Notes: generated by a model from the letters alone, not told the origin. DNA of 64,000 nt from an uncultured Haloferula sp. (GCA_965652295.1 CBFGTS010000014.1:45794-109793), one strand, 5' to 3'; counted from the stretch's first letter, positions 8,726 to 18,172 are shown. Numbers and translations: made by a program.

Positions 8726-8894
8726 GAAAGTTGCGGTTAGGAGGCTTGCGCGTCGAACTCATCGCAAAAGACGCACGCCGTCAATTCCGCGAAAATTGGC
8801 TCTCCGTCAGATTTGCTGGTGGCTACCGGGCAGATTCCAACCTCCACCCGCGGGCTCAGCGATCGACAAACGGAGCGGCGAAACGCGTTCGCCG

Positions 8895-9047: not shown

Positions 9048-9083
9048 ACGGAGCGCCGATTATGAAATCGGCACCGCCTCACC
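9048..9083 (+). repeat. 36-bp dispersed palindromic repeat, copy 1
   Basis: ACGGAGCGCCGATTATGAAATCGGCACCGCCTCACC, identical to 63668-63703; internal stem GCCGATT/AATCGGC. Confidence 0.85.
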
Positions 9084-9525
9084 CCACAGGATCTCTGCCT
9101 CAAGGATAAACAGCTCCTCACCTCTCCCACCCCCCTGGGGTCACCCCCTCATCCGTTCTCGCCACAAGGCTTCGATGGCTCACAGGTGCAGAAGCATTCT
9201 TCTGGATACCGAGGCACTGAAAAAGACCGAGACCACCGGGTCCGGAAACCTCTCATCCTCCCTTTCTCCGTGCAGCTCCGTTTCTCGGTGATGGAAAAAG
9301 GCAACTTGGACCTCGGACGCCTGCATGAGGCCTCGGCCCTCGAAGATTCTACATGAACCCCTCGATCCGCGGCCACACCTCATCCGCATCCCGGCACGCT
9401 CGCTCCCCGCCTTGATCCCCTGCGACGATAGTTAGTGCCCGACTCCGCGGCACCCTCGACTCACCACCGGCGGAAGACTTCCAATATCTCCCCCAGCTTC
9501 CGCCCCCCGAAGCACACCTCCACGT

Positions 9526-9645
9526 CAGCCGAAAATTCTCGAACCACTCCAGCACCAGCAAAAAACCGGATCTATCTTGATCCGACAATCCACGAAACTC
9601 CGCAAGATCCTTTCTCCAGCACCAACGCGACTTCGAAGCGCGCAT
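9526..9645 (-). pseudogene. intI: 5' remnant (about 40 codons) of a probable integron integrase
   Basis: MRASKSRWCWRKDLAEFRGLSDQDRSGFLLVLEWFENFRL resembles, from recollection, the N-terminal extension of verrucomicrobial integron integrases; divergent from attI and cassette array in canonical integron geometry; no tyrosine-recombinase catalytic motifs remain. Confidence 0.55.
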
Positions 9646-9690
9646 GACTCGCGATCAAACACTTCCGATGATCCGGGTCAACCTTGAAGG

Positions 9691-9704
9691 TGTTCTTTAG
9701 AACG
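9691..9704. promoter_or_regulatory. Putative LexA (SOS) box upstream of the integrase remnant
   Basis: TGTTC-TTTA-GAACG, one mismatch to the Verrucomicrobia LexA motif TGTTC-N4-GAACA; 45 bp upstream of the ATG at 9645. Confidence 0.55.
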
Positions 9705-9946
9705 TCTTCATACCCGCCGAGGCACCCGACCGCCTCCGGGAAACTCCGCACGCCCGCAATCCGGCCCGCCGTACCGGAACCTGCCACGGTGTAGCGCAGC
9801 GGAGACGGGCTCCCGCGCAGTGATATCACCGCCGGCTGGCCACCCGGAAAGGCCCTCCCCGAACGGGCTGGATATCCGCACCCTCCGCGCAGAAAACCCT
9901 TGTTACTCAAAGGTTTTCCGCCAAATTCCCCTGAAAGGCTCTGGCG

Positions 9947-9987
9947 GATATCACCTCCGGAGACACTACGAATAAAAACTGTTCGCG
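9947..9987 (+). other. Putative attI site (core GTTCGCG at 9981-9987)
   Basis: A-rich stretch followed by G/TTCGCG, 15 bp before the first cassette ATG; exact reverse complement of the R'' box CGCGAAC of the first attC; no attC hairpin upstream. Confidence 0.65.
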
Positions 9988-10002
9988 GAAGAAATTAAGA
10001 CC

Positions 10003-10578
10003 ATGCCAGGAATCCCATTCCCAGCCTTCTGCACTAACCCAGCTTGCGGAACATTTTTCTTTGCTGACCGGGTAGTCGGCGTTCCAGACGGTTCGCAGGC
10101 AAGAATCAATGTGACTAATTTTGGCGTTGGTCCCTGCCCGAAGTGTGGCGATTTTGGGGCGGTTCCAGACGGAGTATATTCGCTCGTCGATGCGACCATC
10201 CGCGATCCGCACGAAGCGGAGCGGGTCCGTCGTTTCCTCGCGGTGATGGAGCGCCATATTCGATTCCCAACATCGCTACCGGAATTGATGAATGATCTTT
10301 CCGCTGAGGGGATCAAGCCGAGCGTTTGGCGACCTAAGAATGTAACCGAAGCAGTGGCTTTGATAGGTGCGGTCTTCATGCTACTTAGTTTTGCTTACGG
10401 CATTTACAAGGATCACCGGGCCGATCCTCCTCCTCAGCGAGCGAGCGGCGAGATGAAGGAGGTGATTGAGATGATTCTCGACAGGACCATCCCGCCCATA
10501 ACCCAACAAGCCCCATCACCCACATCATCGCCGACACCACAAGATCCTCCGACACAGCCAGCCCAGCCAAAAGAATGA
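10003..10578 (+). CDS. Integron cassette 1: hypothetical protein with N-terminal Zn-ribbon-like motif and one TM helix
   Basis: CTNPAC...CPKC, hydrophobic segment, Pro-rich tail; lower GC than flanks; stop codon 1 bp before attC. Confidence 0.75.
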   Translation: MPGIPFPAFCTNPACGTFFFADRVVGVPDGSQARINVTNFGVGPCPKCGDFGAVPDGVYSLVDATIRDPHEAERVRRFLAVMERHIRFPTSLPELMNDLSAEGIKPSVWRPKNVTEAVALIGAVFMLLSFAYGIYKDHRADPPPQRASGEMKEVIEMILDRTIPPITQQAPSPTSSPTPQDPPTQPAQPKE

Positions 10579-10579
10579 A

Positions 10580-10705
10580 CGCGAACAAGACGTGGGTGAG
10601 CAACGGCGCTGGCCGCTTCTTCTCGGAGTCGTTGGGACGTTTCACGCTTCCCTCCCTTCGTCGGCGTGCGGCTCCCGCGCCGTGCCACCACATTTAACGT
10701 TCGAC
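10580..10705 (+). other. attC site 1 (126 bp)
   Basis: R'' CGCGAAC, arm GTGGGTGAGCAACGGCGC pairing with GCGCCGTGCCACCAC with extrahelical bases, R' GTTCGAC. Confidence 0.85.
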
Positions 10706-10714
10706 CAAAACTAC

Positions 10715-11188
10715 ATGACTAAACGGAAAGAAATTTTACCCACCTGGATCAGGTTCTCCGCTTGGATATTTCTAATATTCGCGATCACCCCATTGGTCTT
10801 TCTGCTAGGGCTCACTGGAAAGATGAACGTGAGCATGACAGTTTTCGGCCTCGAGTATTCAGGATACACATCTCTTCACCCCGTTGCGATTTGGATTACG
10901 ATTATTCTTTCGATGGCAGCGACCGTATCTTACGGCATTTTATGGGGTAAGGATTGGGCGGTCGATTCGGCCATCGTCTATACCATCCTAGCTCTCGCGA
11001 CAAATTGCTTTGCGGTGGTATTTCGACTCACGGGAAACGAGATATATATCCCACTTGAGCCGCTGTTTCTGATTCCATTTTTAGTGTCGCTGATCCGTCG
11101 CCGAGACAGATGGAAGCGCTATCCAGAAATCGAAGCGAAAAAGTCAGATGGCGAACAAGATAAGATGAGAAGGCAGGGAGGGCCATGA
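10715..11188 (+). CDS. Integron cassette 2: hypothetical integral membrane protein (about 4 TM helices)
   Basis: ATG 9 bp after R' of attC1; AT-rich; four hydrophobic segments; frame runs through the R'' box and now stops inside the IS. Confidence 0.75.
   Translation: MTKRKEILPTWIRFSAWIFLIFAITPLVFLLGLTGKMNVSMTVFGLEYSGYTSLHPVAIWITIILSMAATVSYGILWGKDWAVDSAIVYTILALATNCFAVVFRLTGNEIYIPLEPLFLIPFLVSLIRRRDRWKRYPEIEAKKSDGEQDKMRRQGGP
11150..11160 (+). other. Interrupted attC site 2 (R'' box and spacer only)
   Basis: GGCGAACAAGA matches the attC1 start CGCGAACAAGA; 6/7 complementary to the GTTCGAC that opens this cassette; IS110 sequence follows. Confidence 0.65.
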
Positions 11189-12111
11189 GTGGCCCCATGG
11201 TGTATTCTACCCGTTGCCATGAGAACGAACTCATCTACGACAACCATAGGAATCGACCTCGGCGACAGGAAGCACTCGCTTTGCGTGCTCGCGGGTGATG
11301 GAAAATCCTGACGGAGACCACCATCGCCAACACGCGGGAAGCAATGTCTCGCTTCTCGAAGGAATGCCCTGGCGCTTTGGTCGTGATGGAAATGGGAATG
11401 CAAAGTCCTTGGATCAGCCGCTTTTTCACGGATCTTGGTCATCGTGTGCTGGTAGCCAATCCCCGCAAGGTCCGCGCGATCTACCAAAACGATCGGAAGT
11501 GCGATCGCAAGGATGCGGCGATGCTCGCCAAGCTGGCCCGGGCCGACGAAACCCTGCTGGCTCCGATCGAGCACGGTACCGAGCAAGCACAGCTCGACCT
11601 CCTTCAGGTCAAGCTACGGGACAATCTGGTGCGCCAGCGGGTCGATGTGATTTGATCTCGCCGCCCCACGGCTCGCCCCCTGCGGGGCACGTCGCTTCGC
11701 TCCTGTCCATCCCGCTCCGCGGTATTCCGCGGTGCGCTTCACCCTCAAGAGCCTGGGTATCCGCCTGGGCTCGCCGAATACGAACGGCTTCGCCCGCCAC
11801 GCACGGCGCGAGCTTACGGAAGGAAACGCCGGGATTCTCGGCGTTGATTGAGCCGTCGCTGATGGTCATTGAGGCCATGACGGCTCAGATCAAGAAGCTC
11901 GACGGCGCGATCGCCGAACTCGCCGCAGAGTCTTACCCCGAGACGGGTTTCTTACCCAGATCGCTGGCATCGGCCCGATTACCTCGCTGACATTCATCCT
12001 GACCATCGGTGACCCGGAGCGCTTTCGACGACCGCGAGACATTGGAGCTTATCTCGGACTGGTGCCCAAGTGCCCAAGCGCGACCAGTCCGGCGACACCG
12101 ACAAGCAGATG
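11161..12111 (+). mobile_element. IS110-family element (DEDD recombinase pseudogene from ATG 11219), 3' truncated
   Basis: Motifs IGIDLGDRKH, VMEMG, VANPRKVRAI, KCDRKDA, GIGPITS, GAYLGLVPK, QSGD; several frameshifts, a 73-bp insertion and an 8-bp duplication. Confidence 0.9.
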
Positions 12112-12363
12112 AGCGAGCAGTCGCCCTTGGTGACCGAGCGCAGTAGAGCCAGGAGGAAGCCGGCGGCGCTGAATTTGTGGGAATACCTGAGGATGAGGCC
12201 TGATTTTCTTGCGATGGCGTCGAGATCTGAGAGGCTCAGGGAGAAGTTGGCACCGAACATGCCGATTTTGCCGGAGCCCCCTGCAGGGCAAGCTTTTTCT
12301 CAACCATTCCACCATTCACAATGCTGACTATCAGTGACTTGCGTCGCTAGGTTTACGCAAATG
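12112..12363 (-). mobile_element. IS4-like element left end with transposase N-terminal fragment
   Basis: Minus-strand end CATTTGCGTAAAC; peptide LDAIARKSGLILRYSHKFSAAGFLLALL resembles IS4-family N-termini; abrupt junction with IS110. Confidence 0.55.
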
Positions 12364-12464
12364 ACCCCTGACCCGCTTCGAGTTGGAGTACTCATGGCGC
12401 TCCCTCCTTTCCACCACTGCGATCACCGCACCCGATCAGGGGTGGCTGCGCTCTGACATTAGTG
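12364..12464 (+). other. Partial, degenerate attC (right part)
   Basis: ACCCCTGA pairs with TCAGGGGT; starts like attC3 (CCTGACCCGCT.CGAGT.GGA); ends TGACATTAG where attC3 has TGACGTTAG; 7 bp before the FRG ATG. Confidence 0.7.
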
Positions 12465-12471
12465 CAAGCAA

Positions 12472-13185
12472 ATGGACGCGATTACTTCAGTTTCTCAACT
12501 ACTCGGATTTGCCTCTGGCAGCTACTTCGCAGAGTCACGCGGACGCTGGGTATTTCGTGGCCATTCAGACCGTCACTATACCCTGGTCCCCTCAGTAGGG
12601 AGAGGCTCCCACTGTTCACGAACACGAGTGGAACACGAGCGCAGCCTATTCGATATTTTCTGTAGAGAAGCACGCGGATACATCGGTGGATTTCCCGAGA
12701 ATCCTTGGGAACAGCTTTCAGTCGCCCAGCACCATGGGCTGCCGACACGGCTGCTTGATTGGACACACAATCCTTTGGCTGCGCTCTACTTTGCGATTGA
12801 GTCCAACTCGGATAGGGATGGCGAGTTCTTCGCGCTCCATGCGCCCCGGAATGCCTCGCTGACCAAGAGTGAGAGGGACCCATTCGAGATTCGTCAATCT
12901 GTGAAGTATTATCCGAATCTTGTCTCTCCTCGAATCAAGGCTCAGGAAGGCCTATTCGTGGTTTGCTCACAGCCCGAATCTCCATTGGACGGAGTCCTTC
13001 GTTCCGACTGGAGGCTTGAGCGCTACATTGTTCCGGCCGAAGCGAAAGAGCGCCTTCGGTATGATCTGTTTCGGGTCGGTATTCACGCTTCATCGCTGTT
13101 CCCCGATGTTGATGGTTTAGCTTCGCGTCTGAAGTGGCAGCATACAGTAACAAGCCCTAGCAAGTCGCAGCACCCAACCGCCTGA
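12472..13185 (+). CDS. Integron cassette 3: FRG-domain protein
   Basis: WVFRGH, AQHHGLPTRLLDWT.NPL.ALYFA, RIKAQEGLF, SLFPDVDG motifs. Confidence 0.92.
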   Translation: MDAITSVSQLLGFASGSYFAESRGRWVFRGHSDRHYTLVPSVGRGSHCSRTRVEHERSLFDIFCREARGYIGGFPENPWEQLSVAQHHGLPTRLLDWTHNPLAALYFAIESNSDRDGEFFALHAPRNASLTKSERDPFEIRQSVKYYPNLVSPRIKAQEGLFVVCSQPESPLDGVLRSDWRLERYIVPAEAKERLRYDLFRVGIHASSLFPDVDGLASRLKWQHTVTSPSKSQHPTA

Positions 13186-13280
13186 CCCGCTCCGAGTCGG
13201 ATTTTCACCGTGATTTCAAACCTCACCCCACAGTCAACGCGCGGCTGCCGTCAGGCGGTTGGTGTGCTATGACGTTAGCG
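13155..13280 (+). other. attC site 3 (126 bp, degenerate R'')
   Basis: CCCTAGC-AAGTC-GCAGCACCCAACCGCCTGAC pairs with GTCAGGCGGTTGGTGTGC, then R' GTTAGCG. Confidence 0.8.
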
Positions 13281-13289
13281 GAAGAATTT

Positions 13290-13360
13290 ATGCACTCAGC
13301 GCCGCCATCGCCGAACGATCCGGAGGACACAGAAGATGCCTTTCTATCCATGACCGGCAT
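13290..13360 (+). pseudogene. 5' stub of a fourth cassette gene, truncated by the IS30 fragment
   Basis: ATG 9 bp after R' of attC3 (MHSAPPSPNDPEDTEDAFLSMTG), then a switch to IS30 sequence. Confidence 0.45.
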
Positions 13361-13586
13361 GCCCCGCTCCCAGGAGTGATGCGGAGTGGCGAAGTAGAAC
13401 GGCACGTCGGTGATCTCCTCGACGGTCAGGTAGTCGTGGAACTCGCTGCCGTTGTCCGCGGTGATCGTCTTGTAGCTGCCGAGATGGCGAGCCATCAGCT
13501 TCAGGATGGAGCGGGTGGTCTCCGCCATCGTCACCGCGCGGATCTTGCCCATCTCCAAATAACCGCTCCGGCGTTCCACGAGGGTC
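13361..13586 (-). mobile_element. IS30-family transposase internal fragment
   Basis: TLVERRSGY, TITADNGSEF, FYFATPHHSWERG motifs; no termini visible. Confidence 0.88.
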
Positions 13587-14036
13587 GGGAAGACGTCGTT
13601 TATCGTTGTCGCCCAGAAACCCTGCGAGAATATCCACCACTTCCAGAGTGTGAAAATAGCCCAACACAGTAAAGACCTTTTGTCGCTCTGTTAAGTAATG
13701 GTTATAGGCAGGTCCGTTTTCAAGTCCTTCTTCTTTGAGCCTTGAAACATAATCCCGGAAGAAGCCCGGGAATTCAGGTCGTTCGGCAAGGGCTGTCTCA
13801 AGCGCGGGGACTACTTGGGTCTCCATGGCTTTGGAAAACGTCGGGAGTCGGTATTTCCTGTAAAGCATGGCAAGTTCAGGCATGGCTTCCTCGGCCGGCA
13901 TTTGGCGGAGTTCATGAATACGCTCCAAAACCGAGGTCTCCCATGCTTGCAACTCTGCCGGGTTGTCAGGAAGACGGGCTGATATTTTTGTCGAAATCGT
14001 GACGATTCCGACCAGCAAAACTATGAAACATTTCAT
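13587..14036 (-). pseudogene. 3'-truncated paralog of the 14067-14876 exported protein
   Basis: Signal peptide; shares GLE.GPAYNHYLTER and AGFL.DND.RRLP with the upstream gene; cut by IS30 after RRLP. Confidence 0.8.
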
Positions 14037-14066
14037 GGATTACAGCGGCACCTCCGCCACCGCCCC

Positions 14067-14876
14067 TCATGAAGCCAGCCGGGCCTTCCATCTCCAGAAA
14101 GCGAATCCCAGCACTAGCGCCAGCAACGCTCCCACCACTGGAATCCACGGAGTTTCCTCCGGCGCATTCCCTTGATCGACAACGGGTTGTTCGGGCCGCT
14201 CGTCCACCGACCGACGTGGTTCCCTCGGTGTCGCCAACACTTCTCCTCGGAAATCGTAGCGCTTCTTCGAGCCTTTGAAAGAATACGCCTGCTTGCCTTC
14301 GCGCACTCGATCCCGCCATTCGAGCCAGAGATCCATGCGCATCGAGCTCGGCACTGGAGGATTTTCCAACATGCCCGCCAGCGCGCTGGCAGAAGCTTGA
14401 CCCAATGTTCCCTCAAACTCAGGCAGACGCCGTTCGTCGTTGTCATCCAGAAAGCCTGCGAACATCTCAACCACTTCGGGAGTATGGATTTGGGAGAGTG
14501 CCGAGAAGGCCATCCTCCTTTCGGTGAGGTAGTGGTTGTAGGCTGGCCCGCTCTCAAGGCCTTGCTCCTTTAAGTCGAGAATATAAGATTCAACGTGACT
14601 GGGGAAATCCGGGTGCTCCTTCAAGGCTTCCTCCGCCGCTGTTTTTACAATAGGTTGGCTTTTCTCGCGATTTGTTGGGAGATTCATCTGAAAGACGTAA
14701 CGCATCAACTTGTGAAGCGTCTCCTTAGTTGGAGACCTTCGTTGACGCTCGATCGATTCCAAGATGCCCTTCTCCCAATTCGCGTATTCTTCCGGGTCAG
14801 ACGGCAGGTGTCCGAATGCGTGGGAAGCAAGGAAGATGATCCAACATACCATCCATTGCACATGACTTGTTTTCAT
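14067..14876 (-). CDS. Exported helical protein with C-terminal TM anchor
   Basis: Signal peptide, C-terminal 'WIPVVGALLALVLGFAFWRWK'; ATGA overlap with the stop of the upstream 981-aa gene. Confidence 0.75.
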   Translation of the reverse strand: MKTSHVQWMVCWIIFLASHAFGHLPSDPEEYANWEKGILESIERQRRSPTKETLHKLMRYVFQMNLPTNREKSQPIVKTAAEEALKEHPDFPSHVESYILDLKEQGLESGPAYNHYLTERRMAFSALSQIHTPEVVEMFAGFLDDNDERRLPEFEGTLGQASASALAGMLENPPVPSSMRMDLWLEWRDRVREGKQAYSFKGSKKRYDFRGEVLATPREPRRSVDERPEQPVVDQGNAPEETPWIPVVGALLALVLGFAFWRWKARLAS

Positions 14877-17818
14877 TCCACTGGCGGCTTCAGATTTACT
14901 TCCAACCATGCATCAATCTTATCCCATTCCCCCTTCACCAACAGCCGCTTTCTCAATAGACCGGTGTGAAACGGATTCGAATACATCAATCGATCGGGGT
15001 GATGGGTACCTGCCAAGGGTGCAGGTCCTTCGCCATTATTCGGGTGTCCTCCCCCCATCATGACGTGCCCGATTTCGTGCGCCAACGTGTTGAGAATACC
15101 GCTTTTGCTCCTCCCCGTATTGCCGGGGAGCCAGACGGTTTGCGAAGCCGGATGAGCAAGACCCACATACCCTCCGAAACCATGGAACTCGCTGTTGAAA
15201 TCCCGCCAGACGGTGATTTGTTCCGCGCCACCCACGAAATAAACGTTGATGTCCGCAGTGGCGTCCACTCCCGCAGAGGTAAGGATCTTGCTTTGTTCGG
15301 CTCCAATGTCGCTACCATTCGAATCCAATGAACTATTCCCTGAGGCAGGTCCTGATCCGGGCTCTTGTAGAAAATCCTCTCCCGTTCCGTAGTCCCAATA
15401 CACCGGGGTCGGCTGGACATCACCGGAGGTTTCGACGTCCCAATAGGCGTTGACCTGTTTGCCGTAGATGTCGTCGAGGAATTCCTCGATTTCGGCTTTG
15501 GTGAAGGCGTGTTCAGGATTCACCCGGCCGTCCACGCCGTTGTTCTGCGCGACGTGCCAGAAGTGGAGTTTCACCTCACGCCGCTTCATGACCTTCACTC
15601 CGATCGGATGGGAAACGCTGTCGGCATCTTCGAAACCGAGATCCACATCCACCTCGGACGAGGACGTCGCAGCCGAGGACCAACTTACGGGAGTAGTCCC
15701 GAGATCAAGGGTAGCAGGAGTAATGGCGACGTTCCCGGCGCTCAAGGTCAGGGCCCGGTCGGGCGTCACGGGAGCGTGGACGACCGAGGCATTCGCCTCC
15801 GAACCTCCTCCGGGAACCATCACCCAGATTTTGCCCCCTTGTCGTTCGTCCTCCTTCAATGCGGTCGCCGAGACAGGATCGACTCCGGTGGCAAATTCGT
15901 CGTCCTCCACCCGAACGGGAACGGCGCTGAGCAATCGGGTGAAATCCGCCGGAGCCTCGTGGGAGGAGAGACCCGCGACAAGGGAACCCGAACCGGCCAT
16001 TCCCAAAAGGCGGGCCTGCTTCCATTCCCCGTCCAATCCGGGAGCGATCTCGGGGAGGTAATACAGCCGCCCATTCCGCCAGACCAATCCCTCGCGCATG
16101 ACGCCGGTTCCGTCCTTGGACAGATCGATGAGATCTTTCATTTTCGAGATCGGAGACCAATCCGACGAAGACTTCCTGGCTCTCGGAGTCACCTTTTCAC
16201 CGAGGAGCACCAAGCCTCCATTACCGTTTTCTCCACCCACTTCAACCATCTTCCGAAATTCATTCTTACCCAGCGAGATCGCCGCGCCTCCCGCTCCGGT
16301 AAGGAAGCCTTCCTCGTTCTGCCAGTCGTACCCCCAGAGAGCCCCGGACTCGTGGGCAAACACCGCATACGGCGGGGCCGGGGTATAGACAGGTTCGGAC
16401 CCTTCCGGTTCAAGATCCCAAACCACCCGCTGGTCCTGCTGCCAGCTCACTCCGGAACCCGAGCCACTGGAGACCCCCTTGTAGTTTTGAACCACGATTT
16501 TCCCGTCGTTCGAAAGGGTCGAACCAAACCTCAAAAAACCGTGTGCCATGTCATACGGTGCACGGGCCGCATCGTTGCCTGATCTCATTTCGGAGGCACC
16601 GTCGCCGGGTTTCTTCCACCAAACGAGGCGTCTGCTCTCCCGGCTTTCATTGAGATCATCGTCGAAGGTCTGACTCCCCACGACCCAGCCCTGATCATTC
16701 ATGGCGTAGAGCAGGGCATCTTCGCCATAGTCCACGATCTCGCCGCGATCCCAAACCTTGCGGCTGAACATCACCCTGCCCACATCGTCCACCCCCGCCG
16801 GGCCCTCCGGCCATAAGCCTGGTGTGGTGAGAGAGGAGATCGGCAACTCAAACACCGCATACACCGAGTGGGGAGTCTTTTTCCAATTGATGAGCGAGTC
16901 GTTTGCAACCGCGTCTTCACTATCCGGCACCGAGTCTCCATCCGAGTCGAGCTGCTGTCCATCCGGTACACCATCGCCGTCGTTGTCACTTTGAAAGGGA
17001 GAGGCCAAACCCGAGTCCGGGTGCTCGGGATCCAACATCACGGCAAATTCGGCCCAATCGGGACTGCCATCGGAATCGGAGTCGAGACTCCAATCCGCCG
17101 AAATCCGCACGAACCCCCTGCCATCCGGCGAGGCGGGAGCCGGGGGAGGTGCCGCACGAGCAACGGCCACGGAATTGGCGACGGCCGCGTTCATTTCGGG
17201 CAGGCGGGCCCGGAACTCATTCACCATCGCGGCATCCTCTTCGGCAAGCGGAGACTCTTCCTGCGGAGGGATCTGCGGCGTGGGAAGATGGAGGACGAAA
17301 AAGTAGTAGTCGCCGTAGGGGTGGGCGAACCATGGCATCTCCGACCAGTCCTGATGCAGGGATTCAGGAATCCGGAACACCACCGATCCACCTGAATCGA
17401 GCGAACGCCAGGAAAGGATGGTGCCCGTTTCCGGAGAGGCCGCCGGGGCGACCATCAGGCTGACGTGGTGCAAGGGCATCTCCACCGCTTCACCCCCGGG
17501 CGCTTCCGGGTCCGGTGCCGGGGCCGGCTCCCTTTCCACCAATGGCACGACGTGTTCGTGCCCCAGGCCGTAGACTTCGTCGATCTCCTCCCAATCCTGC
17601 AGATCCCGGCTGAACTCGACCCGATAACCCACACCAGCCGTCGATCGAAATACCCAGGAAGTCTGCACCGATCCATCAAGCGCGGGCACATCCTCCATCC
17701 AACGGGGCGGCAGCGGGTCATCTTCGTGGGGCGCTACCGAAGAGAAGGCCAGCGACACCATGCTTGTAGCCAAGAACACCTTGGAAAAGGTCATCCAGCA
17801 CTCAGTCATGAGTGCCAT
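14873..17818 (-). CDS. Large exported multidomain protein with acidic DxDxDG repeats and C-terminal HExxH zinc-metallopeptidase-like domain
   Basis: 981 aa; DSDSDG/DNDGDG/DSDGDS repeats; TLAHEIGHVMMGGGH followed by RLM (Met-turn-like). Confidence 0.75.
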   Translation of the reverse strand: MALMTECWMTFSKVFLATSMVSLAFSSVAPHEDDPLPPRWMEDVPALDGSVQTSWVFRSTAGVGYRVEFSRDLQDWEEIDEVYGLGHEHVVPLVEREPAPAPDPEAPGGEAVEMPLHHVSLMVAPAASPETGTILSWRSLDSGGSVVFRIPESLHQDWSEMPWFAHPYGDYYFFVLHLPTPQIPPQEESPLAEEDAAMVNEFRARLPEMNAAVANSVAVARAAPPPAPASPDGRGFVRISADWSLDSDSDGSPDWAEFAVMLDPEHPDSGLASPFQSDNDGDGVPDGQQLDSDGDSVPDSEDAVANDSLINWKKTPHSVYAVFELPISSLTTPGLWPEGPAGVDDVGRVMFSRKVWDRGEIVDYGEDALLYAMNDQGWVVGSQTFDDDLNESRESRRLVWWKKPGDGASEMRSGNDAARAPYDMAHGFLRFGSTLSNDGKIVVQNYKGVSSGSGSGVSWQQDQRVVWDLEPEGSEPVYTPAPPYAVFAHESGALWGYDWQNEEGFLTGAGGAAISLGKNEFRKMVEVGGENGNGGLVLLGEKVTPRARKSSSDWSPISKMKDLIDLSKDGTGVMREGLVWRNGRLYYLPEIAPGLDGEWKQARLLGMAGSGSLVAGLSSHEAPADFTRLLSAVPVRVEDDEFATGVDPVSATALKEDERQGGKIWVMVPGGGSEANASVVHAPVTPDRALTLSAGNVAITPATLDLGTTPVSWSSAATSSSEVDVDLGFEDADSVSHPIGVKVMKRREVKLHFWHVAQNNGVDGRVNPEHAFTKAEIEEFLDDIYGKQVNAYWDVETSGDVQPTPVYWDYGTGEDFLQEPGSGPASGNSSLDSNGSDIGAEQSKILTSAGVDATADINVYFVGGAEQITVWRDFNSEFHGFGGYVGLAHPASQTVWLPGNTGRSKSGILNTLAHEIGHVMMGGGHPNNGEGPAPLAGTHHPDRLMYSNPFHTGLLRKRLLVKGEWDKIDAWLEVNLKPPVE

Positions 17819-17980
17819 TCAGTGCTCCGCCACACATAAGGCAAGTCAAAATGACTACGCTATGCGCTGCGAGGGTTTCAAGCTACTGAAATACCAGCCC
17901 GGAAAGGCCGTCCACTCACATCTCCCGGTTCACGTCCGAAAGATCCGGACAATCTATTTATCCATCAGGTAAAAGCAATT

Positions 17981-18172
17981 TTGCGAGAAGAACGGCTCAA
18001 ACGGGGCATCAGTTTCAGAAAATTGGAGAGCCTTTGTGGAATCTCGCACGGGTATCTTGCGCTTGCCGGGCGTTCCGATGTGCAGCCAACGCTTCTTGTG
18101 ATCCGGCAATGGACCAATGGCCTTGGCATCAGTTTGGAAGACGTCATCCAACGGGCACACCAAAATTCTTGA
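17981..18172 (+). CDS. XRE-family helix-turn-helix protein (start uncertain)
   Basis: LREERLKRGISFRKLESLCGISHGYL...PTL...LGISL pattern; divergent from the 981-aa gene. Confidence 0.6.
   Translation: MREERLKRGISFRKLESLCGISHGYLALAGRSDVQPTLLVIRQWTNGLGISLEDVIQRAHQNS

Follow-up and report, generated by a model that had tools for sequence, protein, structure and literature searches.

A remnant chromosomal integron in an uncultured Haloferula with a 40-codon integrase stub and a predicted LexA operator

Positions 9526 to 13360 of a 64,000-nucleotide stretch from an uncultured Haloferula sp. (GCA_965652295.1, CBFGTS010000014.1:45794-109793; the whole stretch is called the window below) hold, with a probability that we put at about 0.8, the remnant of a chromosomal integron in which the integrase gene intI is reduced to 40 codons, the gene cassettes are likely to be frozen and a palindrome in the intI promoter is predicted to bind the lineage's own LexA. 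Taken alone, the locus is an ordinary dying integron. Together with its relatives it points to something broader, which we consider probable at a lower level of confidence: that integrases of the Verrucomicrobiales have repeatedly acquired their host's LexA operator, which is not of the E. coli type, upstream of the -35 hexamer, in tandem or in the start codon, SOS coupling having re-evolved rather than been lost, and that the arrays are also parasitised by an undescribed attC-targeting subclade of IS4 elements besides IS1111.

Integrase stub, attI and attC sites

The initial annotation, made from the sequence alone, read the interval as an integron with an integrase stub, an attI-like site and an eroding array of cassettes with attC sites. 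Its coordinates for 9526-13360 were all correct on rechecking, and each of these readings holds, given the matches to the stub, attI and attC models built from relatives only, and the end of the similarity at codon 40. The parts concerned are the following.

9526..9645, reverse strand: intI stub, covering codons 1-40 of an integron integrase with an N-terminal extension
9822..9951, forward strand: GATAT motifs at 9822, 9871 and 9947 and a conserved TTG at 9900, in the same arrangement as in relatives' intI-attI regions
9947..9987, forward strand: attI, with the crossover between G and TT at 9981/9982, 336 bp from the intI start
10580..10705, forward strand: attC1, second hit of the attC model (43.3 bits, E 1e-9), R boxes intact
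13155..13280, forward strand: attC4, first hit of the attC model (79.4 bits, E 2.5e-19), decayed

The divergent 40-codon open reading frame (ORF) had been proposed as the leftover of intI, and its peptide matched 23 of 61 genomes, with up to 88% identity, at integrase N-termini; these matches are the starts of open frames holding integron-integrase matches. A full-length relative of the stub scores 317.9 on TIGR02249 (cut-off 265) and consists of about 100 N-terminal residues without a Pfam match, then PF13495 and PF00589. Similarity to the stub stops sharply at codon 40: in comparison with 20 relatives, nucleotide identity is 66-83% for codons 11-40 and 28-41% for codons 41-70. The array is also integrase-less as claimed: a six-frame search of the assembly (4.37 Mb, 35 contigs, 98% complete) gave no TIGR02249 match above the cut-off and no whole intI, and because no whole intI was found, the four cassettes are likely frozen and eroding. 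The best intI match elsewhere in the assembly is a copy on contig C18 that is 5'-truncated, interrupted by a 205-bp repeat and facing its array; across the genus, 21 of 34 genomes had an integrase match at E 1e-40 or better, often several. A complete integron carries an intact integron-integrase gene, of which 40 codons are present here; an integrase-derived stub, two or more attC sites, and an attI with a GTT crossover, all present here, are what is expected of an integron remnant or a CALIN (cluster of attC sites lacking an integron-integrase).

Of 29 relatives' loci, 28 have a conserved attI motif upstream of intI, and in 27 of these it is 251-339 bp from the start. When a profile built from relatives only was run over the assembly, the window's site was the best hit (E 1.3e-13), followed by sites on contigs C11, C18, C7 and C4 (E 3e-11 to 2e-8); the next hit had E 0.06. 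The analysis thereby yields an attI consensus for the phylum, where standard tools use none. The attI core (9981-9987) is, as had been pointed out, the exact reverse complement of the R'' at 10580-10586. The GATAT motifs are candidate accessory sites for IntI and the TTG region a candidate cassette promoter, Pc; in the closest clade the conserved TTG stands 85-88 bp before the end of the crossover.

The attC covariance model drew on 43 candidate sites from relatives (heuristic scan), 32 of which were aligned, with no window sequence included, and it was run on the whole window with filters off. Both sites described at the outset do measure 126 bp, and the model ranked them first and second; a partial site at 12364-12442 came third (15.2 bits, model positions 23-104 only), and the other four of the seven hits scored 12.5 bits or less. 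The R'', L'', L' and R' boxes of the two sites are supported by this model and by predicted folds. In attC1 the predicted structure pairs the R and L boxes, and in the excised form the R box is paired over its full 7 bp. The bottom strand of attC4 folds with a z of -3.56 (0/200 shuffles as good), and the site is identical to an intact one in a relative at 114 of 127 columns; its decay shows in an R'' with AGC in place of AAC, the lack of one base near L'' and an R box left unpaired in the fold.

A predicted LexA operator at intI promoters

The initial annotation was right about the integron but missed a conserved operator in the intI promoter.

9676..9681, reverse strand: TTGAC, predicted to be the -35 hexamer of the intI promoter, at a distance of 9 bp from the operator
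9691..9704, no strand assigned: one-mismatch form of TGTTC-N4-GAACA, a predicted LexA operator lying 45 bp upstream of the intI start

The palindrome TGTTC-N4-GAACA was first seen in the intI promoters of relatives. In the assembly it occurs six times in perfect form, with 37 further sites at one mismatch. Of the perfect sites, one each stands before lexA and recA, one before an imuA-like gene with an IMS gene behind it (imuA-imuB), one before a gene with a Whirly domain on contig C1 (not splB-like), one before a presumably ssb-like gene and one at an orphan promoter in an array on contig C9. The palindrome is perfect also before lexA and recA of a second genome (G003). At intI its distance to TTGAC is 6-10 bp in 13 of the 20 closest relatives; before recA it is 10-11 bp in two genomes.

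Scored with at most one mismatch within 120 bp upstream, the operator precedes 25 of 35 intI of the stub clade, versus 2/3000 random, 14/3464 ORF-upstream and 20/7000 shuffled windows. Other IntI of the order have it at 6 of 19 distinct loci. A fresh sample of the order comprised 68 loci, eight of which could not be scored; the operator was present at 17 of the remaining 60, versus 8/1412 control ORFs, with 5/7 in family f1, 11/27 in f3, 1/21 in f5 and 0/5 in f4. An operator common to the phylum was not found: outside the order the counts were 0/29 and 0/20 at first and, on re-scoring, 0/28 for other top hits of the phylum and 0/20 for loci of other orders. Two genomes of other orders have 1- and 2-mismatch versions in their lexA promoters and none in their recA promoters; other orders may use variants of the operator. 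Host lexA and recA share the operator with intI promoters, where its conservation exceeds the background, and the integrons are likely to be controlled by a divergent form of the SOS response. In a quick, unrooted tree of 70 IntI the box is found on 24 rows in three separated groups, all with Verrucomicrobiales hosts, at varying distances from the start and in some cases overlapping the ATG. Because the palindrome occurs in three separate IntI lineages, the pattern suggests that hosts rewired integrases to their own LexA motif.

Two further arrangements were noted. One intI subclade (L082, L083, L029, L030, L061) has two tandem operators, the second overlapping the start codon. At C9:194450-194600 (L234:2950-3100) a perfect operator, TTGAC and an ATG 46 bp on have the geometry of an intI promoter; this orphan operator heads a short stub that is cut by an IS4 element and points into the array, and the peptide behind it had no match in 34 genomes.

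Solo attI arrays and the stub junction

A search of the genome, as the initial annotation had advised, found no intact intI but did find four more attI-headed arrays, which that annotation had missed. These solo attI arrays (C18:1-3000, C4:215800-219400, C11:85500-87900 and C7:176500-183000) each consist of an attI and a Pc-like region followed by cassettes; two of these four attI sites, those on C7 and C4, have a changed crossover GTT. A sixth attI-like head of a different type, also followed by cassettes, was recognised by eye at C4:294500-294620 (L116:100-200) and lies outside the attI-profile hits.

The solo arrays bear on the left end of the stub, through one more feature.

9395..9532, forward strand: left half of an attI-upstream module, 76-90% identical to copies on contigs C18, C4, C11 and C7

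In the solo arrays the shared module is 225-330 bp long, with 80-90% identity and without a divergent intI; it was found in none of 34 genomes of other species, and the attI region of the window itself resembles it at only about 70%. At the left junction the module meets intI codon 40 at a 7-bp common sequence, 9526-9532. A rearrangement, likely a microhomology-assisted deletion or exchange, would have brought intI codon 40 up against the upstream half of a different attI module, the partners presumably being a solo module and an intact integron. We also considered whether the DNA left of codon 40 is decayed intI: a BLAST alignment reached residue 68, yet nucleotide identity falls to the 28-41% given above, and the top 25 hits of a profile built on codons 41-100 were all shuffles, so that this origin is rejected.

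Integron parts (attI, attC or intI) were found within 1.5 kb of the flanking aminotransferase gene in none of 29 relatives' loci, which rules out an old sedentary integron locus of the genus. An adenosine deaminase gene precedes the aminotransferase in 16 of 27 relatives and is absent from the assembly except for a short stretch at 8770-8797 that matches its last codons. Because this gene is otherwise absent here and none of the 29 relatives' loci carries integron parts, the site is best described as a lineage-specific rearrangement. Elsewhere, in three genomes (loci L091, L092, L093), a small element between short repeats interrupts intI at one and the same codon, about 70, with differing adjacent deletions; we take the ORF of this element to be GIY-YIG-like.

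A split attC site and its insertion sequences

Between cassettes 2 and 3 the array is occupied by remnants of two insertion sequences (IS) flanked by pieces of attC.

11150..11159, forward strand: left part of attC2, R'' plus AAG, 6/7 complementary to the core opening cassette 2
11160..12114, forward strand: broken IS1111-type (IS110 family) element, PF01548, with frameshifts and a 73-bp insertion; the 3' part and the non-coding guide region are missing
12110..12363, reverse strand: left end, with codons 1-50, of an IS4-family element, a full-length close relative of which scores 130.1 bits on NF033592 (cut-off 115)
12364..12464, forward strand: right part of an attC, without R'' and L'', its core at 12458-12464 reading ATT not GTT

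The initial annotation had called the two pieces partial attC copies. They are attC-derived, as it held, but by the registers of the two insertions they are more probably the left and right parts of one site, split by two attC-targeting insertion sequences, than independent degenerate copies. Together they are most simply explained as one attC that was hit twice and whose remnants were fused by a deletion, because the two registers (after R'' plus AAG; 22 bp inside the site) account for all of it except precisely the arm that is missing. Two other derivations were set aside: the inverted repeat 11169-11190 / 12390-12411 does not represent the arms of one attC, its first arm being the IS1111 left end, and an origin of the right part from the C18 array, considered for its identical 10-bp IS4 flanks, is unsupported, the 10-mer being common in this attC family.

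The IS1111 copy has 93% nucleotide identity to a copy in another species, and an intact relative scores above the NF033542 cut-off. The 73-bp insertion (11653-11725) is common to the window and a copy in another species (L106), and it seems, from this shared lesion, that an already damaged element moved between species. The left end directly follows ACAAG in 15 of 17 copies by pattern and in the remaining two by eye; nine of ten computed empty sites restore one full-length attC that outscores either half; and the non-coding regions of all ten two-ended copies contain AACAAG. In G003, five identical copies (L102, L108, L110, L112, L113) are inserted at an opposite-strand AACAAG in the middle of attC, not beside R''. 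In another locus (L098) the attC beyond IS1111 is interrupted again by another sequence, the ORF start of which appears to resemble a group II intron reverse transcriptase; at the end of contig C35 there is a tail like that of a group II intron.

Besides IS1111, elements with a second type of transposase, that of the IS4 family, seem to home to attC. In the assembly, five of six IS4 end matches are located in attC, all at one register. A protein search gave 12 relatives, of which the four closest (from two genomes) are in attC and the eight more distant are not; further scans placed three of six metagenome end matches (two repeating flanks already seen) and three of four genome loci (one being a copy already counted) in attC. 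The IS4 remnants at window 12110 and at C9:194449 stop at the same nucleotide in unrelated contexts, and a third copy runs on.

Discussion

The locus is an integrase-less integron, a known kind, while the lineage-specific intI operator and the attC-associated IS4 subclade are variants that we have not found in print. The accessible text of Cury et al. 2016 (PMC4889954) names, among the ways in which a CALIN can arise, that a recognisable intI is lost, and that of Ghaly et al. 2021 (PMC8618304) includes Verrucomicrobiota among the phyla listed with integrons. Like the chromosomal integrons and CALINs of those texts, the present system has divergent intI and attI, promoterless cassettes and attC sites with R and L boxes; unlike them, as far as the two texts are accessible, its IntI clade carries about 100 extra N-terminal residues without a Pfam match, and there are several short arrays per genome, four of them with attI and a Pc region and without a divergent intI.

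The operator also differs from what has been described. The available portion of Cambray et al. 2011 (PMC3108266) reports a search with 15 motifs in which no non-E. coli LexA motif was found in intI promoters; regulation was inferred to be lost where LexA recognises a divergent motif, and that loss was tied to integrase inactivation. The promoters described here resemble SOS-controlled intI, to judge from the portions available of that paper and of PMC8876359, in having a palindromic operator that matches the one at lexA and recA, and are unlike the SOS-controlled intI of PMC3108266 in that the motif is not of the E. coli type. A divergent operator is present at the intI promoters of three IntI lineages within one order and at none of the sampled relatives outside it, and the question whether damage-coupled shuffling is a convergent requirement of integrons becomes directly testable; if our reading is true, SOS coupling of cassette shuffling re-evolves when an integron meets a divergent LexA, rather than being lost. 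We take TGTTC-N4-GAACA to be the published Verrucomicrobia LexA motif; it reportedly appeared in Erill et al. 2016, after the 2011 survey.

By its place of insertion the IS1111 element behaves like the IS1111-attC group (ISKpn4, ISPst6), for which RNA-guided targeting is described in the accessible part of Siddiquee et al. 2024 (PMC11187229). Like that group, as characterised there, it has an IS110-family transposase, subterminal inverted repeats and insertion in attC, and its intact relatives have a long downstream non-coding region with a target-like stretch; unlike it, the verrucomicrobial lineage inserts at AAC-AAG just inside R'', and the window copy is broken and without the guide region. 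The intact relatives thus combine transposase, subterminal repeats, non-coding region and a fixed position in attC, while the window copy is without its right part. The IS4 element shares with its family (NF033592) a DDE transposase, terminal inverted repeats and a target duplication of about 10 bp (exact in one of three two-ended copies, with 1-2 mismatches in the others), and departs from the family generally in that the subclade sits at one register inside attC. Further titles on the IS1111-attC group are said to be Tetu & Holmes 2008 and Post & Hall 2009. In the literature covered, which leaves out most subscription papers, no paper was found that connects integrons with a Verrucomicrobia LexA motif or attC with IS4, though Erill 2016 or Tetu 2008 could already mention such a link.

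Intact relatives show the order from which the locus would have decayed: an IntI of 415-470 amino acids pointing away from the array, a predicted LexA operator beside the -35 hexamer, the GATAT repeats, a predicted Pc and finally attI. If the system works as in Proteobacteria, intI would be released from LexA repression upon DNA damage, and IntI would then cut cassettes out by way of folded attC bottom strands and place them at attI, behind Pc, steps established in other integrons. In the window, attC2 would have been hit by the attC-targeting IS1111 and the attC-associated IS4, before or after the stub junction formed, with a deletion fusing the remnants; attC4 has decayed and an IS30 piece cuts cassette 4. 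Cassette 1 may still be transcribed from Pc.

Several findings weigh against parts of this reading. The folding energy of attC1 is no better than that of shuffles (bottom strand z -0.46, 56/200 as good), nor is that of the partial site (z 0.40), and 126 bp is no constant of the lineage, candidate attC of relatives measuring 59-133 bp. The interval 11150-11159 holds only R'' plus AAG, directly followed by the IS left end. Both IS types hit many attC, and the two pieces could come from two attC sites if the fusing deletion also took out cassettes that lay between; the arm on the left, by which the pairing could be decided, is gone, and we regard this as doubtful though still a serious alternative to the single split site, which the exact fit of the two registers to the missing arm makes the simplest account. 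As to the operator, the window's own copy carries one mismatch, the promoters counted are related and their counts not independent, the box is rare or absent in two families of the order (1/21, 0/5), and the IntI tree came from a quick, unfinished search and is unrooted. The palindrome might then be bound by another factor, such as IntI, or be an inherited promoter element without SOS function: 18 of the 24 box-bearing tree rows fall in one IntI clade, boxes at -7 overlap an ATG-AAC-A start that itself supplies one half-site, and class 2 integrons, according to the accessible part of PMC8876359, carry a LexA-like box yet lack SOS regulation. We nevertheless think this unlikely, since the same palindrome stands before lexA and recA in both the window's genome and G003 with similar TTGAC spacing, it recurs in three separate IntI lineages at different distances, and none of six control ORFs starting ATGAACA has the box.

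The absence of a whole intI is likewise read against an assembly that breaks at IS copies, where an intact gene could have gone unassembled. An integrase encoded there or on a mobile element might still shuffle cassettes in trans among the five attI-headed arrays, whose attI sites persist with conserved GATAT and Pc-like elements, and the R boxes of attC1 are intact. Such continued activity is improbable, given the six-frame searches, the altered GTT in two of the four solo attI, the split attC2 and decayed attC4, and contigs of four runs in which no joint with another cassette order was seen (contigs drop rare variants). More improbable by far is that assembly created the arrangement as a chimera of several strains or loci. 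The DNA does occur in metagenome runs and repeats stand at 3-fold depth, but in two samples of one study, one of which may be the source, single Logan contigs cover 9058-11216 (0 differences) and 9054-10239 (1 difference), bridging the stub junction and the promoter and attI, and another spans 10433-12139.

Cassettes and neighbouring features

The array itself was described at the outset as co-oriented, lower-GC ORFs, each starting shortly after a GTT-type core. Four starts do lie 3' of such cores, with core-to-ATG gaps of 15, 9, 7 and 9 bp, and the GC content of the first three ORFs is 0.549, 0.475 and 0.542, versus 0.648 in the flanking aminotransferase gene.

10003..10578, forward strand: cassette 1 ORF, 191 aa, with a Cys-pair N-terminus; two homologues at 50-57%; unnamed Atlas clusters
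10715..11188, forward strand: cassette 2 ORF, 157 aa, hydrophobic, its final codons and stop inside the IS1111 left end
12472..13185, forward strand: cassette 3 ORF, 237 aa, FRG domain PF08867 (E 4.9e-26), PADLOC PDC-S15 (E 1.3e-68)
13290..13359, forward strand: start of the cassette 4 ORF, broken off after about 23 codons
13360..13586, reverse strand: internal piece of an IS30-family element (NF033563, E 8e-15, under the cut-off as a fragment), at which the array ends

No Pfam family above cut-off was found for cassette 1, and cassette 2 had no match in 200 other genomes of the order; domain and defence-family searches gave neither a family above cut-off, so no function is assigned to them. 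The FRG protein of cassette 3 is a candidate anti-phage gene product. Cassette 4 is truncated because the IS30 piece, which is identical to contig C2:280-506 of the same assembly, cuts it.

Other arrays also hold defence-like genes: one on contig C7 has a DUF4365 protein gene followed by a 476-aa ORF (L235:2789-5583), and one on contig C4 (L064:3-608) a gene with a GmrSD N-terminal domain and then a further ORF, which we take to be HEPN-like. To the right of the array, window 13585-18000 is duplicated on contig C3 at 96-99% identity, including a 981-aa ORF without a Pfam match.

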